NCBI GenBank assembly: GCA_965223265.1 | Contig: OZ244999.1 | Location: forward strand, 1,248,001 to 1,312,000 | Source: Planctomycetota bacterium | GTDB taxonomy: Bacteria; Planctomycetota; UBA8108; SXIK01 | Direction: 5' to 3' | DNA: 64,000 nucleotides | In this document: in pieces, positions 53,818 to 60,893 of the stretch | Layout: the number at the start of each line of letters is the position of its first letter | Position numbering within the stretch: the first letter of the stretch is position 1 | Program-made: the position numbers and the translations under genes | Notes under the pieces: model-generated | The model's database searches: none | Seen by the model: only the letters and a program-made list of their open reading frames with translations | Told to the model about the DNA's origin: nothing

Positions 53818-55077
53818 ATGAGAACGAGACAGACCAGGTGCTTTGTTCAGAGTCCCGCTTTCGGGTTGGCGATCTGTCTGTTGGTCGCTAACTCCTCTGC
53901 GTATGCCGACGGTAAGTACTTCGTCCGTCCCGAGGATCCGAGACCCGGCGAGCCATATCAGCGGGCGTTGATCTTGCACGACAGCGGCAAGGAGTTTCTT
54001 CTTGTCCAGCCACTGGTTGAGGGACCAGCGGACGACTTCGCCTGGGTTGTGCCTGTTCCCAACGTGCAGGCTGTGGGACATCTCGATGCTGATGACGCTG
54101 ACGAGATTTTCTACTACTTGGCTATGTTTTCGCTTCCTGATGCCTTGCGCGTGGGCCGGGTCGTTGCGTTCGTGGTGGTTGGCTTGGGCGCGGTCGTCGC
54201 GTTTTGCCTCAAGCGCAAAGCGATCGCGTGGGGCCTTAGTGTCCTGTTTTTGGTGCTCGGGTGGGAGGCTATGCCATCGCTGAGCCGTCCAGCGGCTAGA
54301 GGTGTCGAAATTGTGGCGGAGGCGCGTGTCGGTGTCTACGACACCAAGATTCTCAAGGCATCCGACCCTTCCGCTCTCAAGTCGTGGTTCGACGAGCATG
54401 GCTTCACGTTCGCCTCGGAGGACGAGAGCGTCTTCCGCGCCTACATCGAGCGCGGTTGGAGTTTTGTCGCCGCGCGCATCGTCGTCGATCAGCCTAAGAA
54501 TCGCGAGGATCTCTCGGAGAGAGGTTGGCTCCAGCCTCTCGCGATTCTGTTCGACACGGACGTGCCGGTTTATCCCTACGCTCTCACGGCGACGCTGGAT
54601 CATGCGGTCAACGTGCAGCTGTACGTTGGATCCTCCCAGCGAGTGACGTCGGCGCCACTGGAGACACAGTTCGCCGGCCGCTTGCCGCGGCTCCCGCCAC
54701 CGTGGCATGACGAAGAGCACGAAGAGCACGAAGAGCACGAAGAGCACGAAGAGCACGAAGAGCACGAAGAGCACGAAGAGCACGAAGAGCACGAAGAGCA
54801 CGAAGAGCACGAAGAGCACGAAGAGCACGAAGAGCACGAAGAGCACGAAGAGCACGAAGAGCACGAAGAAGTGGCCAGGTCAAATTTCGCGGTCACACCC
54901 GGCCTCTACGTCCAGTGGGCGATCGGCGCCGACACGGACCCAGGTGTGATTCGTTTCGAGAACGCGCAGTGGCTCACCACTCTGCAGGCGAAGATTGAAC
55001 CCGGAACAGCGAGCGACGACTTCTTGCTGACGCCAGTCCCTAACGCATCCTTCCAGCGCACGTTGTGGCGCTGGTGA
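53818..55077 (+). CDS. DUF2330-like membrane protein with an (EEH)17 insertion
   Basis: QRALILH, DFAWVVPVP, VGVYDTKIL, YIERGWSFVAAR, LQPLAILF motifs; internal TM segments. Confidence 0.75.
   Translation: MRTRQTRCFVQSPAFGLAICLLVANSSAYADGKYFVRPEDPRPGEPYQRALILHDSGKEFLLVQPLVEGPADDFAWVVPVPNVQAVGHLDADDADEIFYYLAMFSLPDALRVGRVVAFVVVGLGAVVAFCLKRKAIAWGLSVLFLVLGWEAMPSLSRPAARGVEIVAEARVGVYDTKILKASDPSALKSWFDEHGFTFASEDESVFRAYIERGWSFVAARIVVDQPKNREDLSERGWLQPLAILFDTDVPVYPYALTATLDHAVNVQLYVGSSQRVTSAPLETQFAGRLPRLPPPWHDEEHEEHEEHEEHEEHEEHEEHEEHEEHEEHEEHEEHEEHEEHEEHEEHEEHEEVARSNFAVTPGLYVQWAIGADTDPGVIRFENAQWLTTLQAKIEPGTASDDFLLTPVPNASFQRTLWRW
54712..54864 (+). repeat. Perfect tandem repeat (GAAGAGCAC)x17, in frame
   Basis: 153 bp with no mismatches, followed by partial gaagaa. 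Confidence 0.97.
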
Positions 55078-56447: not shown

Positions 56448-57761
56448 TCAAGACTTAGATAGCCGAGGATTGCGTTTCCAGACCTCTCGCCGAATGCGAT
56501 TTCGGCGCTCTGTGGCCGCCGGGCCGTGAACAACTGCCAGAACTCGACGGAATCCGGATTCCAGCTGCTCAACGCTCATGTTGTCCGGAGTGTACGTCAC
56601 ATCAAGGAGCGTATAGTGCGACCAACCGCGGTAGGGGAGCAAGCGACCGCGCTTCTTCAAACGATGATATAAGGCGGTTCCAGGAAACGGTGTCTGTACG
56701 GTCACCTGAACCTCCGCGAACGGGCTGCCCAGAATGAATTCGGTGAGCGCGTGCAAGGACGCGTCCGTTTCTCCTTCCGCGCCGGCGATGAAGCAGCCAT
56801 TGACTGCGACGCCGGCCTCCTGAATGGCTCGAACGGCGTCGAGCACGCGCTCCATCTCCGCCTGCTTGGCGCCCATACCAGGATAGCGGAAGACGAGCGA
56901 TTCGATGCCGACGAGCAGTTGCACACAGCCAGAGGCGGCCAAGCTTCTGAGCAATTCCGGGCGCTCGCCGATCCGCCAGTCGGCTTCAGTGAAGTAGCGC
57001 GTCTCTGCCGCCCCGAGCACTTCCAAAAGCGGTTCGGGGTCCCTGGGCCCGACGAACGTGCTGTCATCCGCCAGTTCGATCCATGGTTTCGGAGACATCT
57101 CGCAGAGGGCATCGACTTCGGCCTGAATTCGCTCCAGGGGTTTCTCCCGCAGCGGCCCGAGCAGGCGACTCGCGCCGCAAAAGTCGCACGCCATGGTGCA
57201 GCCGCGCTCGGTTTGGAGTGTCCAGCGCGCCGGCTTTCGGACTCCCAAGAGATCGAACCGAGGCATGGGCGCGCGGGACAGATCGAACGCGGCGTCGGCT
57301 CGATAGAGCGTTTTGAGTTCGCCAGCGGCGGCGTCTGACAAGACCTCCTGCCAAACCGATTCGCCGTCGCCGACGGCGACCGCGTCGACCGAGAGCTGAG
57401 CTTCGGCGGAGCAGGTCGTCGCGTGCAGACCACCGATGACTGTGCGAACTCCACGCTCGCGCACCTGACGGCAGAAGGCGTAAGCATCGTTGACGGAGGC
57501 GGTGAGGGCCGAGACCGCGAGGAGGTCGGGCTGCTGGGAAAGGACTGTGTCGAGAAGCTTTTCGGTGTCCTGCGAGCCATCGTGATAGCTGCACTGCCAT
57601 GGCTCGGGAGTCATACCCGCCAATGTCAGCAGACCGAGGGCAGGAAGTTCTTCCAATGCAGCCACTCGCGGCTTGAGTCCGGGCAGCGTCAAGCCGAGTT
57701 CGCGCAGCTCGTCAGAGCAGATGCGCAGACCGGTGAACGGTACGAAGGCGACGTGGGGCAT
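56448..57761 (-). CDS. B12-binding domain radical SAM protein
   Basis: LGLLTLAGMTP, VIGGLHAT, GDGE, TERGCTMACDFC (CxxxCxxC), GIES, TPFPGTALY; ATG 57761. Confidence 0.92.
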   Translation of the reverse strand: MPHVAFVPFTGLRICSDELRELGLTLPGLKPRVAALEELPALGLLTLAGMTPEPWQCSYHDGSQDTEKLLDTVLSQQPDLLAVSALTASVNDAYAFCRQVRERGVRTVIGGLHATTCSAEAQLSVDAVAVGDGESVWQEVLSDAAAGELKTLYRADAAFDLSRAPMPRFDLLGVRKPARWTLQTERGCTMACDFCGASRLLGPLREKPLERIQAEVDALCEMSPKPWIELADDSTFVGPRDPEPLLEVLGAAETRYFTEADWRIGERPELLRSLAASGCVQLLVGIESLVFRYPGMGAKQAEMERVLDAVRAIQEAGVAVNGCFIAGAEGETDASLHALTEFILGSPFAEVQVTVQTPFPGTALYHRLKKRGRLLPYRGWSHYTLLDVTYTPDNMSVEQLESGFRRVLAVVHGPAATERRNRIRREVWKRNPRLSKS

Positions 57762-57810
57762 GGAGGTGTTGTAACGACGCAGGGCGCTTTTGCAAACGCA
57801 GCGTTGGACG

Positions 57811-57962
57811 GAGGCGGAGGCAGAGGCGGAGGCAGAGACAGAGGCAGAGGCGGAGGCAGAGACAGAGGCAGAGGCGGAGGCAGAGACAGAGGCAGAGGCG
57901 GAGGCAGAGACAGAGGCAGAGGCAGAGGCAGAAGAGACGGGCCGCCCACGCCCACGCTCACG
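57811..57962. repeat. Left composite repeat: 20 purine-rich hexamers (GAGGCA/GAGGCG/GAGACA, 24-bp period) + core GAAGAGACGGGCCGCC + CACGCC run
   Basis: Read directly from the sequence. Confidence 0.92.
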
Positions 57963-58026
57963 ATCGAGTCGGAGCCGGAGAAGATGTGTTGCTTGAGTGG
58001 CGTGCGGCGGCGGCTGTGTCGATCTT

Positions 58027-58152
58027 AACCGCAGCAGAGCCGGCCTCAAGGGTGCCCTCGCTGCGCTCGGCGCTTCGCGCCCTTGACCCCGTCTCTGCTG
58101 CGGTTGGTGGCAGTGAAACGCCGCCGCGTCGTGCGTCGGCGACAGTTCACTG
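58027..58152 (+). other. Structured leader: long imperfect stem-loop plus a second hairpin upstream of the four-helix-bundle gene
   Basis: aaccgcagcagagccggcctcaaggg / cccttgaccccgtctctgctgcggtt (58027-58105); cagtgaa..cgccg/cggcg..ttcactg (58111-58152). Confidence 0.7.
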
Positions 58153-58172
58153 GCCGTTGACCGGAGTCACAC

Positions 58173-58496
58173 ATGAGCTTTCTTGCTCTGGATCACTCTT
58201 TTTGCATCGTCCGTCAGCTGCGTCCTCTTGTCTCGAGCGTTCGTCGTCACGACTCGAAGCTCGCGGCTCAGCTGCGCGACGCTGGTTCGTCCGTGGCACT
58301 CAACCTTGGCGAGGGCAATCGGCGTCAGGGTCGTGACCGCGGACATCTTTGGCGCATCGCTTCGGGCAGCGCTGAAGAGGTGCGCACGGCGCTTCGTGTT
58401 GCCGAAGCTTGGGGCTACATCGATGCATCGCACACCTCTGCGGTGCTCGCGGACATCGATGCGCTGCAGGCGATGCTCTGGAAGCTGACGCACTGA
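58173..58496 (+). CDS. Four-helix-bundle protein (23S rRNA IVP / bAvd-like family)
   Basis: LAAQLRDAGSSVALNLGEG, IASGSAEEVRTALRVAEAWGYI, MLWKL; SD ggag. Confidence 0.9.
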   Translation: MSFLALDHSFCIVRQLRPLVSSVRRHDSKLAAQLRDAGSSVALNLGEGNRRQGRDRGHLWRIASGSAEEVRTALRVAEAWGYIDASHTSAVLADIDALQAMLWKLTH

Positions 58497-58542
58497 GGCG
58501 AGGGCCTCGGGCCCGCTGTGCGTTGTTTAGTGCGGCGGGTTT

Positions 58543-58610
58543 GAGGCGGAGGCAGATGCAGAAGAGACGGGCCGCCGACGCCCACGCAAACGCCCACGCA
58601 AACGCCCACC
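58543..58610. repeat. Right composite repeat: 3 hexamers + the same core + CACGCA/AACGCC run
   Basis: gaggcggaggcagatgca-gaagagacgggccgcc-gacgcccacgcaaacgcccacgcaaacgcccacc; 42/45 identical to 57913-57957. Confidence 0.88.
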
Positions 58611-58952
58611 GAGGCGAAACTACACAGCCTTTCCTTGGCGCCGTTCGCTTTCCTTGGGCCGCACACTTGGAAGGAGAACTTGTCGACGCGTATCTATGGC
58701 CTGTTCTCCTTACCACGCTGGATGTCGGCGCGACTCGTTCGAGGCACGAAGAACCGCCGGATTCGCTGGTTTCACTTCAGGGGGCGTGCGGGTAGAACGG
58801 ATGGGGCTGACGTCAACGAACTCAAGGCGCTACCTGTCGAGCGCTTTACGATCGGAGAATTGCGGACGCACCGACGGGTCGCCTTCGTTCCCTGACTTCG
58901 GACGCGTTTGCAGGGATGAGAGAGACCGCTAAGGCGGTGATTCGAGGACTTT

Positions 58953-60893
58953 GTGCTGAAACCATTCTTTGCATCCTTTCTTCTCGGGGTCATCTTCCTA
59001 TTCACCGTCAACGATCGGCTTCGAGCACAGAACTTGAGCGTCGTTTCGGTGACACCAGCGCGTCACAGCCTCAGTGCGCCCGTCAACTCGACGATCACCA
59101 TCGAGTTCGACCGGCCACTTTCTCGGGCGACGGTTGTACCAGAAAGCTTTTGGGCGTTCGGTCGCTGGAGTGGGACCGTCTCCGGTACCTACACGTTTTC
59201 TAACGACGATCAGATGGTCGCGCTGGTGCCGGATCGGCCGTTTTCAGCTGGTGAGACCGTCATGGTCATTCTCTCGCATGACCTGCAGGCCACCGACGGA
59301 TCGTTCTTGCGCCAGGCCGGCTACTCGTATCAGTTCTGGACTCGAGCTGCTGCCGCCGCGATGGAATTTCATCGCACCGACGTCCTTTCGACGCGCACGA
59401 CGACGCAGACTAGGACGTACGGAGGTTTTGCATCTGACTTGAACCGCGACGGCTGGCTCGACCTCTCCATGGTCCACGAGGACTCGGCGGATGTGCGCGT
59501 CTTTTTGAACACTGCTGACGGCTCGGGGAGCTTCGAGCCGTTTCTCGAGCCGACGACTCCGGTGGGCGCGGGCGCCAGTCCCAACGAGCCAGCCGACTTC
59601 AACCATGATGGCCACGTAGATGCCTGCGTCGCCAACAGCGCTCACGACACTGTGTCGATTTTGCTCGGTAACGGTGATGGGACTTTTCAGCCGCAGCAAG
59701 TGGTGGACGTGGGTGGAACTCCAAGAGGAGTCGCAGTTCTTGACGCCGACGGAGACGGGGACATCGACATCGTTTCGACGAGCGACACGGAAAGCCACTT
59801 GGCGTATCTGGAGAACGACGGAGCTGGCGTCTTCGCCGATCCCGTTTTCTTCGAAGCTGGCGGTACCCGTCGCGAGTGGGCTCTCGCAGCTAGCGACATG
59901 AATGACGACGGAATCCTCGACTTGGTCGTTGGGAACCGCTCCGGTGGCGGCACATCCGGGGAGATCGTGATCAACCTTGGCAACGGCGACGGCACTTTCA
60001 CCGCGCTTCCTGACGTGCACCTGACGATCGGCCGAGTCTGGATGCTCGTCTGCGGAGATTTGAACGGTGATACCCACGAAGACGTCGCGCTGTGCAACAT
60101 TAACAACAGCAACGCTGCCGTCGGCGGCGCAGCCATCTTGCTAGGTAACGGCGACGGTACTCTGCAGACCGCCGTGGACTACCCGATTTCGAGATTCGAT
60201 CCGACGTCAACAGACCTAGGTGATCTCGATGGTGACGGAGACCTGGACTGGATGGTGGGCGCATCAACTGCACCTGGCCGGTGGTCGATCTTTACGAACG
60301 ACGGGAATGGAGTGTTTACGTTGTTCGAGGAAATCCCTGCGGCGCGTTCAGCTTCGTGCACTCTCATGCTCGACTTCGACAACGACGGCGACCTCGACCT
60401 GGGGCTGGTCGATGAGTTTAGCGACACGGTCACGTTGATGGAAAGCCGTGAGCCTCTGGACTGCAATACAAACGAGATCAGTGATCGCACGGACATCCGG
60501 GACGGGACGAGCCAGGACTGCAACTTGAACGAAATTCCAGACGAGTGTGACATCGAGAGTGACGTATCTGCGGATCTCAACGAAAACGGTGTGCCCGATG
60601 AGTGTGAATTGAACTTCCTTCGCGGCGAGTGCAACGACGACGGCGAAGTCGACGTGTCGGACGCCGTGTGCATTCTCGATTGGCGCTTCGGGAACCTTCC
60701 GGAGCCGAGTTGTGTCGCCGCGACCGACACGAACGGCGACGCCGACGTTGATATTTCCGACGCAATCTGGCTCCTCAATTTTCTGTTTCTGGAAGACACT
60801 CCTCCACCGACCGAGCCGTTCCCCGATTGCGGGCCGAGTTCCTTAGTGGCCGACGATGAGCTGGGATGTGTGGCGTCGATGGACTGTCCGTAG
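58953..60893 (+). CDS. Exported Ig-like (Big_5) + FG-GAP/VCBS repeat protein with C-terminal dockerin
   Basis: Signal peptide; ITIEFDRPL Ig-like domain; repeats DLNRDGWLDL, DFNHDGHVD, DADGDGDID; DCNxNxIPDEC repeats; FLRGECNDDGEVDVSDAV..AATDTNGDADVDISDAIWLL. Confidence 0.9.
   Translation: MLKPFFASFLLGVIFLFTVNDRLRAQNLSVVSVTPARHSLSAPVNSTITIEFDRPLSRATVVPESFWAFGRWSGTVSGTYTFSNDDQMVALVPDRPFSAGETVMVILSHDLQATDGSFLRQAGYSYQFWTRAAAAAMEFHRTDVLSTRTTTQTRTYGGFASDLNRDGWLDLSMVHEDSADVRVFLNTADGSGSFEPFLEPTTPVGAGASPNEPADFNHDGHVDACVANSAHDTVSILLGNGDGTFQPQQVVDVGGTPRGVAVLDADGDGDIDIVSTSDTESHLAYLENDGAGVFADPVFFEAGGTRREWALAASDMNDDGILDLVVGNRSGGGTSGEIVINLGNGDGTFTALPDVHLTIGRVWMLVCGDLNGDTHEDVALCNINNSNAAVGGAAILLGNGDGTLQTAVDYPISRFDPTSTDLGDLDGDGDLDWMVGASTAPGRWSIFTNDGNGVFTLFEEIPAARSASCTLMLDFDNDGDLDLGLVDEFSDTVTLMESREPLDCNTNEISDRTDIRDGTSQDCNLNEIPDECDIESDVSADLNENGVPDECELNFLRGECNDDGEVDVSDAVCILDWRFGNLPEPSCVAATDTNGDADVDISDAIWLLNFLFLEDTPPPTEPFPDCGPSSLVADDELGCVASMDCP

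Follow-up and report, generated by a model that had tools for sequence, protein, structure and literature searches.

Proteins of the PF05635 (S23p) family have been puzzling since their discovery in the intervening sequences (IVSs) of ribosomal RNA (rRNA), and the only relative that is understood, to our knowledge, is Avd, the helper of the reverse transcriptases of diversity-generating retroelements (DGRs), a basic oligomer that acts on nucleic acid together with the reverse transcriptase. Some genomes carry many paralogs of the TIGR02436 "four helix bundle protein" type. Dispersed intergenic mosaics of short repeats are known as repetitive extragenic palindromes and bacterial interspersed mosaic elements (REP/BIME) accompanied by a REP-associated tyrosine transposase (RAYT) gene, and as the heptamer arrays of cyanobacterial short tandemly repeated repetitive (STRR) sequences. 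In passages of one study, the Coxiella burnetii IVS is presented as a 428-nt selfish element whose 28-bp terminal stem is a substrate of RNase III and whose S23p start codon is preceded by three tandem heptamers, GACAGAT, a number that differs between strains; the same passages cite an old idea that the IVS open reading frame (ORF) serves mobility (PMC4990558). A second source, in its relevant passage, equates PF05635 with Avd-like proteins (PMC10053308). In this study, we explored a PF05635 gene that lies between tandem hexamer arrays at positions 57811-58610 of a 64,000-nt stretch of a Planctomycetota bacterium (assembly GCA_965223265.1, contig OZ244999.1, positions 1,248,001 to 1,312,000), hereafter the window. 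Our reading, to which we give a probability of roughly 45%, is that this feature represents one copy of a lineage-restricted, multicopy IVS-type cassette of 0.55-0.65 kb, spread by recombination within the arrays and encoding an Avd-like binder. Judged from its sequence, the cassette is a putative small transcription unit made of a structured leader of ~170 nt, a 107-aa PF05635 ORF and a strong 3′ hairpin, set between array modules as follows (TRF, Tandem Repeats Finder):

57811..57932, + strand: purine-rich "R" hexamer array (GAGGCR/GAGACA), 20.3 units (TRF, sequence)
57931..57946, + strand: R→C junction core, left copy, GAAGAGACGGGCCGCC (sequence, genome search)
57943..57962, + strand: C-rich "C" hexamer array (CGCCCA), 3.3 units (TRF)
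57963..58000, + strand: cassette 5′ edge, a degenerate "gcggcgatcgagcc...gcagagaagagctctgctgc" segment (copy comparison)
58001..58131, + strand: leader rod, an outer GC stem GCGGCGGCGG / CCGCCGCCGC around a long hairpin (repeats, folding, covariation)
58132..58172, + strand: second small hairpin and ribosome-binding region, GGAG at 58163-58166 (sequence, folding)
58173..58496, + strand: 107-aa four-helix-bundle gene (PF05635 / TIGR02436), subfamily A (profiles, AlphaFold2 model, Foldseek)
58504..58547, + strand: 18-bp 3′ hairpin, strand-asymmetric (folding)
58543..58560, + strand: short R array, 3 hexamers (sequence, copy comparison)
58561..58576, + strand: R→C junction core, right copy (sequence, genome search)
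58573..58609, + strand: C-rich hexamer array (CGCCCA/CGCAAA), 6.2 units (TRF)

Like the Coxiella IVS, as far as the account in PMC4990558 extends, the cassette combines the same protein family with a compact size (~0.4-0.65 kb), long stable stems and short tandem repeats directly upstream of the ORF (heptamers in Coxiella); a sporadic distribution, suspected horizontal transfer and the label "selfish" are also common to both. Yet an rRNA IVS was rejected as its identity, given that the sole 23S gene (large-subunit match 2007925-2010917) is free of copies and that the window locus stands between protein genes. Moreover, no terminal stem encloses the ORF, the long stem (58027-58105) being confined to the region before it, and the arrays on either side are direct rather than inverted repeats; ~40 copies in two subfamilies evolve under purifying selection, whereas the Coxiella ORF is described, in the passages concerned, as decaying (PMC4990558). 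With DGR Avd (PDB 4DWL, 8UB7) the protein shares the fold (TM-score 0.82-0.83), but sequence identity is 10-12% and no reverse transcriptase is nearby; a DGR was likewise rejected, the RVT_1 genes at 1.90, 3.42, 3.52 and 5.91 Mb being far from all cassettes. REP/BIME-RAYT and STRR systems resemble the present one in their intergenic mosaics of short repeats and hairpins, their orientation bias and the presence of a protein gene among its repeats. Unlike in REP/RAYT, however, the embedded gene is multicopy and its product is a small helical bundle devoid of any known nuclease or transposase motif; hexamers make up the repeats, in long tandem arrays that in some cases run in frame through genes. 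A transposon with its own transposase was rejected as well, since the sole ORF is the 107-aa bundle and no target duplication of fixed length accompanies it. Finally, the TIGR02436 paralog families include the solved members 2GSC (XCC0516) and 2RLD (BT_0352), similar to the window protein at TM 0.85-0.88; no published link of such paralogs to flanking tandem arrays or a conserved leader was found, nor any general account of non-rRNA PF05635 cassettes lying in tandem arrays, in a literature search that left subscription journals and supplements uncovered.

The host genome searched is a single contig of 9.18 Mb (60.8% GC), with 39 PF05635 matches, 36 of them above the cut-off. Subfamily A (MGFLALDH...) has 18 copies, the window copy included and one frameshifted; subfamily B (MRFIALDVS...), ~48-50% identical to A, has 21, two of them broken, and convergent A-B pairs occur at at least 7 loci. 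By BLASTN, the window cassette with its leader (57600-58900) recurs at 17 other sites at 77-86% identity. One architecture holds across the copies, with an R and a C array, the leader, the ORF, the GC hairpin and again an R and a C array; subfamily B follows the same plan with its own leader and hairpin, its arrays on the strand opposite to the gene. Array modules flank every inspected copy on both sides, and all paralogs show a conserved leader, so that the first refuting condition of the preliminary description, paralogs devoid of flanking arrays or of such a leader, did not hold. Coding sequences (CDSs) diverge mostly at synonymous sites (Nei-Gojobori): nonsynonymous divergence (dN) is 0.070 and synonymous divergence (dS) 0.487, a ratio of 0.14, among 17 intact A copies (136 pairs), and dN is 0.072 and dS 0.551, a ratio of 0.13, among 19 intact B copies (171 pairs). 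Ratios of 0.13-0.14 indicate that the protein is maintained by selection.

Against this background a few copies are nearly identical (CDS pairs 8303383/9141739, 99.7%; 7451353/8978613, 99.4%; 5649708/6172976, 99.4%; 749573/6976310, 99.1%). Among the closest copies (98-99.7% CDS identity), homology runs from about −214..−318 to +404..+492 relative to the ATG, or covers a whole A-B pair; it stops at the cassette and nearby arrays, the ±4 kb flanks being dissimilar. The preliminary description, drawn from the window letters, had proposed a self-contained element, and a discrete multicopy unit sharing cassette and arrays, not flanks, agrees with it. Copies also decay. At 8664784, 7.3 Mb from the window, an ORF-less mini copy has a leader 97% identical to that of the window, fused to the last ~30 nt of the ORF and followed by terminator and arrays; the A copy at 906661 is frameshifted, some B copies are truncated and 8954523 is a leader-only remnant. 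As separate observations, the leader of A copy 4913149 (G000:C1:4913400-4913760; G000, the host genome) holds a ~190-bp insertion with terminal inverted repeats, similar to miniature inverted-repeat transposable elements, and the entire long hairpin is gone from A copy 5176314.

The window protein matches PF05635 (2.4e-14, 53.9 bits, cut-off 33.8) and TIGR02436 (56.1 bits, cut-off 24), and its AlphaFold2 model, built on an alignment of 26 relatives, reaches a pLDDT of 95.3 with helices at residues 2-24, 28-48, 53-80 and 85-106. The fold is an up-down four-helix bundle; the best PDB matches in Foldseek are 2gsc (TM 0.85) and 2rld (TM 0.88), entries of five chains each, A-E, followed by DGR Avd (8ub7_E and 4dwl_D, TM 0.82-0.83). 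The assignment to the four-helix-bundle, IVS-protein and Avd family made earlier from sequence is thereby confirmed, and from family and fold its most likely role is that of an oligomer which, like Avd, binds nucleic acid. Relatives of it were not found in viral contigs.

The leader of 172 nt folds at −97.1 kcal/mol (z −4.5), against −89.6 for the antisense strand. Its long hairpin pairs two 29-nt arms (58027-58055 and 58077-58105, 86% complementary) and has a conserved, almost invariant 41-nt apex. In an alignment of 16 A leaders and three from a relative (G007), RNAalifold predicted 42 pairs, for which 96.4% of cells are paired versus 89.8% in shuffles (0/500 as high), while slid controls reach 38-48%; 12 pairs have changed on both sides (0/500 shuffles), and compensatory pairs make up 9 of the 16 in the middle helix. 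The structured RNA leader proposed in the preliminary description thus finds support in covariation, and invariant G-U pairs, together with the energy advantage of the sense strand, point to a sense-strand fold, as RNA or as sense-strand single-stranded DNA (ssDNA). The consensus of the 41-nt apex, TCAAGGGTGCCCTCGCTGCGCTCGGCGCTTCGCGCCCTTGA, is identical for A and B leaders, despite an A-B dS of 1.66, at which synonymous sites are saturated. The host genome contains the 21-nt core of this apex 39 times; across 400 other genomes of a phylum sample, to which G007 does not belong, the core gave only single one-mismatch matches, in 14. The 3′ hairpin is still more asymmetric (−35.1 kcal/mol in sense, z −5.0, versus −18.8 in antisense) and is a probable terminator or RNA stabiliser. 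In an Rfam scan of 57600-58900 the sole match, to a miRNA, is attributable to chance (E 0.65; 21.5 bits, gathering score 168), and simple scans of 57700-58950 for sigma-70 promoters and intrinsic terminators, uninformative for this lineage, gave 0 sites each. On the side, the 3′ arm of the leader hairpin (58078-58101) is 75-93% complementary to R-array units and to both junction cores (57832-57941 and 58558-58571); this complementarity lets the hairpin arms be read as two to three R-type hexamers and their complement, and, judged from sequence complementarity, the arms could possibly pair alternatively with the flanking arrays. Also noted was a 16-nt direct repeat, 94% identical, between the apical loop of the leader (58062-58077) and the part of the ORF encoding a conserved EVRTALRV motif (58381-58396).

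Arrays, defined by strict regular expressions as at least four perfect hexamers, amount to 186 R and 176 C segments in the genome, compared with 1 and 0 in a 3-Mb Markov simulation. At loci with both kinds, R precedes C on the array strand in nearly all. Within 500 bp of an array lie 37 of the 39 gene matches, arrays with 500-bp margins making up 2.38% of the genome, and the array strand is that of the gene at 48 of 49 segments neighbouring A genes and the opposite one at 43 of 43 neighbouring B genes. With replichores set by GC skew (origin ~7.9 Mb, terminus ~3.5 Mb), the R/C strand is the leading strand at 127 of 175 array loci (binomial p 2e-9). Solo R→C modules often start a few bases after an upstream stop codon, in the examples read, and are intermixed with a REP-like hairpin and other short modules in a BIME-like mosaic. 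Some arrays are coding. Of 57 long R arrays, 18 have the GAN-NCR frame, which reads E or D and then A, T or S, open over 100 or more upstream codons; the two other sense frames reach this length in 4 and 6 arrays. No fewer than 7 of the 18 read as acidic linkers, or in one case a tail, of proteins that are large and plausible. Translations bearing arrays include a Ser/Thr-kinase-like protein, multi-CxxCH cytochromes, coiled-coil and other long proteins with (ET)n, (DT)n and (ES)n linkers or tails; in some, the C array reads (PT/QT)n. These frame counts and in-frame linkers led us to reject, as a general rule, that arrays are only the coding sequence of small ORFs; at the window locus the E/D frame is a 68-aa ORF only. 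The in-frame cases are:

G000:C1 805067, 3455276, 4488074, 5695895, 6393313, 8254138, 5871725, 467572: in-frame arrays within large plausible proteins (translation)

The association extends across genomes. In a sample of 31 genomes of the same class, host included, which are kin and whose counts are hence not independent, cassette DNA is present in four (G000, G007, G014, G017) and the protein subclade (profile A1, E≤1e-8) in six (G000, G005, G007, G014, G016, G017). Arrays of the form (GANNCR)6 occur in 7 of the 31, namely the six subclade carriers and G012 (6 matches, no gene match), that is, in 6/6 carriers versus 1/25 non-carriers; the remaining 24 genomes, a 7.9-Mb, 4-contig genome of the host's family among them, are without either feature. 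Carriers belong to six genera of three families, each of which also has members with neither, G012 excepted (few arrays). In G005 a single copy sits directly 3′ of a (GACTCG)n array, with a perfect hairpin whose 3′ arm contains the Shine-Dalgarno sequence. The next-closest proteins, 45-53% identical, come from metagenome-assembled genomes of Myxococcota, Sandaracinaceae and Polyangiaceae. At 12 of 26 genome-contig loci, an array whose period is a multiple of 6 is found no more than ~320 bp from the gene; these 12 all belong to the 17 loci whose GC is 0.57 or higher, against 0/9 for the lower-GC and mostly more distant loci. In metagenomes, arrays lie within 400 bp at 16 of 22 loci with at least 45% identity and at 10 of 37 below; six of those 10 are (GATATCN)n heptamers, 29-137 bp downstream, in low-GC distant relatives (L134, L137, L143, L144, L155, L156), where the unit differs while the arrangement is the same.

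What, then, is the repeat that brackets the window cassette? The arrays, the 16-bp core, the direct repeat, both leader hairpins, the 3′ hairpin and the gene were all recovered where the preliminary description had placed them (TRF, repeat search, profiles). The R array also reads as a period of 24 (4.8 copies, 98% matches, TRF), and the direct repeat spans 50 nt (57913-57962 / 58543-58592, 90% identical, 630 bp apart). The core GAAGAGACGGGCCGCC, near-palindromic and GC-rich, is of a type that recurs at other array junctions. As an exact 16-mer it occurs at two places in the whole 9.18-Mb genome, both at the window locus; it is not private to the locus, however, for its 12-mer GAGACGGGCYGC has 22 genome matches (~8 expected from composition), nine of them at R→C junctions. 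These are both window copies; 8820014, the upstream junction of the closest full copy; the junctions 750117, 2073586 and 9045761, each beside a B1 copy, and the two that flank B 6976310; and the solo module 6961664. The same junction stands on both sides of the window copy, A 7442401, B 6976310 and B 9046080. The window direct repeat is thus two copies of a recurrent array junction and not a general target duplication, which we rejected since only ~4 of the 36 intact copies have flank-flank matches above the cross-locus background, and these matches are of variable length. The reciprocal array lengths that had been remarked on do fit recombination within a repeated module, but the bracket itself is, by the same count, not general, and the earlier interpretation is supported in part. 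As for the edges, an A-type leader is present at 8/8 of the sites where a "gcggcgatcgagcc...gcagagaagagctctgctgc" segment follows a C array, one of these leaders being interrupted by an insertion and one truncated; other A copies have a similar short purine-rich run directly 3′ of the hairpin, and, on the sequence, the short R array at 58543-58560 may belong to the 3′ flank of the cassette.

Empty sites had been suggested as a test. A module at 6961xxx retains both flanks of a B1 site while the 545-nt cassette, from terminator to leader, is absent: in local pairwise alignment with shuffles, the left flank (53 nt at 83%) scores 59 against a shuffled maximum of 31, and the right 102 against 29. 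Such a paralogous, empty-site-like module exists for subfamily B; orthologous loci were of no help, because the radical SAM relatives, 42% identical, are too distant for synteny. Excision may have produced the 6961xxx module, or no cassette may ever have been inserted there.

We suggest that cassettes are copied or moved between array modules through recombination inside the arrays. This could proceed by Campbell-type integration and excision of a cassette plus one module, or else homology between hexamers could prime template switching or ectopic gene conversion. The short 3′ R run and the gcggcgatcgagcc segment that follows the upstream C array appear to travel with the cassette and, if joined in a circle, would together complete a short module. 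Crossing-over of a short cassette-borne module R3-core-C3 with a long genomic module R20-core-C6, at their junction, would yield R20-core-C3, cassette, R3-core-C6, the arrangement seen in the window. The protein would act on the leader and/or on the RNA or ssDNA of hexamer arrays, and would be kept because the element or the host needs it.

Several points weigh against this model. A cassette accompanies only 33 of the 177 array loci, and some arrays are in-frame parts of large genuine ORFs; with 144 loci lacking the gene, arrays are not simply the "ends" of cassettes. The mean dS of ~0.5 among copies marks most of them as old residents, with no recent burst; gene conversion between fixed copies could explain the near-identical ones in place of movement, the 6961xxx site may never have been occupied, and flank matches are as rare and variable as noted above. 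We know of no catalytic activity in the PF05635 family. Movement of a cassette was not observed. The best radical SAM matches, in G001-G003 and G007, are 42% identical, which puts an orthologous empty site out of reach. The public runs are short-read Logan contigs from one study (4 runs, none listed as RNA), broken at the arrays: they stop at 57802 and resume at 58580, and the extra depth within the cassette comes from paralogs. In such contigs no circle, excision joint or variant array length was seen. An exact flank 30-mer gave 0 matches in metagenome contigs.

Other mobile elements share these loci. A large serine recombinase element (702 aa; Resolvase + Recombinase + Zn_ribbon_recom) interrupts the B-leader hairpin of six copies, always at one position, and the conserved hairpin apex appears to be its attachment site:

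G000:C1:2580500-2584600 (L078), and upstream of B copies 6782008, 7189350, 8597418, 8835222 and 8979156: serine recombinase element

An IS110-family insertion sequence with a 375-aa transposase (DEDD_Tnp_IS110 + Transposase_20) occurs in five tandem copies at ~1.7-kb spacing (G000:C1:486500-497000, L081), each followed by a (GAGGCA)n array, the last abutting A cassette 496337; the same IS110 end precedes arrays at 906 kb and 5.868 Mb, and this recurrent adjacency makes R arrays look like a preferred IS110 target. A single Y1_Tnp (RAYT-like) gene (4206500-4207147; 27.3 bits, cut-off 23) has REP-like hairpins with core GGCACACGGGAGTGTGCC on both sides (4206200-4207650), in both orientations upstream and in at least nine copies downstream, interleaved with C-type hexamers; it looks like a classical REP/RAYT arrangement within the same mosaic. 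Four near-identical RVT_1 genes (~450-aa frames; 1895554, 3424405, 3516453, 5913461), none near any cassette, are possibly group II intron copies.

These elements bear on a quite unlikely alternative, in which the cassette is non-autonomous and was mobilised in trans by an HUH (Y1), large serine recombinase or IS110-type enzyme, with the bundle protein as cargo or accessory. The REP-like hairpins that flank the Y1_Tnp gene interleave with C-type hexamers in array loci, the replichore orientation bias is as expected from single-strand transposition, through which IS200/IS605 elements acquire such a bias, the serine recombinase element hits a single B-leader point in six copies, and IS110 copies abut R arrays. 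Yet Y1_Tnp tracks arrays (5/7 array genomes, 4/24 array-free ones) worse than the bundle gene does (6/7 and 0/24), the cassette is without the REP hairpin, the serine recombinase and IS110 elements interrupt or abut cassettes and never bound them, and neither a fixed target duplication nor a conserved terminal cleavage motif was found across copies. It is also very doubtful that the bracket is a local accident, in which unequal crossing-over or gene conversion between neighbouring arrays duplicated the junction around a fixed cassette, the array lengths being slippage. The nearest full copy, 8820347, shares the upstream junction and differs downstream, so the second core copy arose after the divergence of the two, and array unit type and length differ between copies, with flank matches above background being rare; but the two-sided junction recurs at three other cassettes, in both subfamilies, and the modules on both sides of every inspected copy would be left unexplained.

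A domesticated regulator seems to us unlikely, yet it draws on some of the same data. Here arrays would be cis-acting RNA elements and the bundle proteins RNA-binding oligomers, much as ring proteins bind spaced GAG repeats, and the copies would be ordinary paralogs shaped by host recombination, not selfish ones. Purifying selection on 36 intact copies in the face of a dS of ~0.5, the many solo arrays just after stop codons with their leading-strand co-orientation (127/175), the better folding of both hairpins on the sense strand, which fits a function at the RNA level, and the Shine-Dalgarno in the hairpin of G005, which suggests translational control, are all in its favor. On the other hand, pseudogenised, truncated and ORF-less copies and mobile-element insertions speak for the tolerated decay of a selfish family, and a patchy presence over six genera and three families, with absence in sister genomes, is better matched by horizontal spread than by an old regulon. 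A bolder extension of array-borne spread, which we consider improbable, would make the PF05635 protein, the folded leader and the hexamer arrays a single transposase-free mobile system, in which the Avd-like oligomer would bind the leader hairpin or single strands of hexamer repeats and promote template switching or recombination in arrays, thereby spreading the cassette and seeding or expanding the arrays. If so, arrays would have been seeded even in frame in host genes, surviving as acidic (E/D-x)n linkers, and both the confinement of arrays to gene-carrying genomes (with one weak exception) and the presence of the gene inside rRNA as "intervening sequences" would be explained.

The flanks of the window cassette are protein genes, and no rRNA, reverse transcriptase or transposase occurs among its immediate neighbours, as had been noted from the outset:

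56448..57761, − strand: left neighbour, B12-binding radical SAM gene, outside the element and marking unique flank (ORF list, profile match)
58953..60893, + strand: right neighbour, FG-GAP / Big_5 protein gene, outside the element (ORF list, profile match)

The real start of the divergent radical SAM gene is 57761, and the R array (57811-57932) begins 50 bp upstream of its start codon. Elsewhere in the window, a 9-bp tandem repeat at 54707-54870, within the ORF 53818-55077 (+), encodes (HEE)17 in a DUF2330 protein (PF10092, 7.5e-28); all six frames of this repeat are open, hence the long spurious ORFs that overlap it on both strands.

Overall, ~40 copies in one closed genome, a covarying leader, a near-exclusive association with arrays, phyletic co-occurrence and an empty-site-like paralog turn a small gene into a testable system. 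If the coupling between gene and arrays is causal, it would represent a new way of generating and moving bacterial tandem repeats, low-complexity protein linkers included, and would offer a hint at the origin of rRNA intervening sequences.

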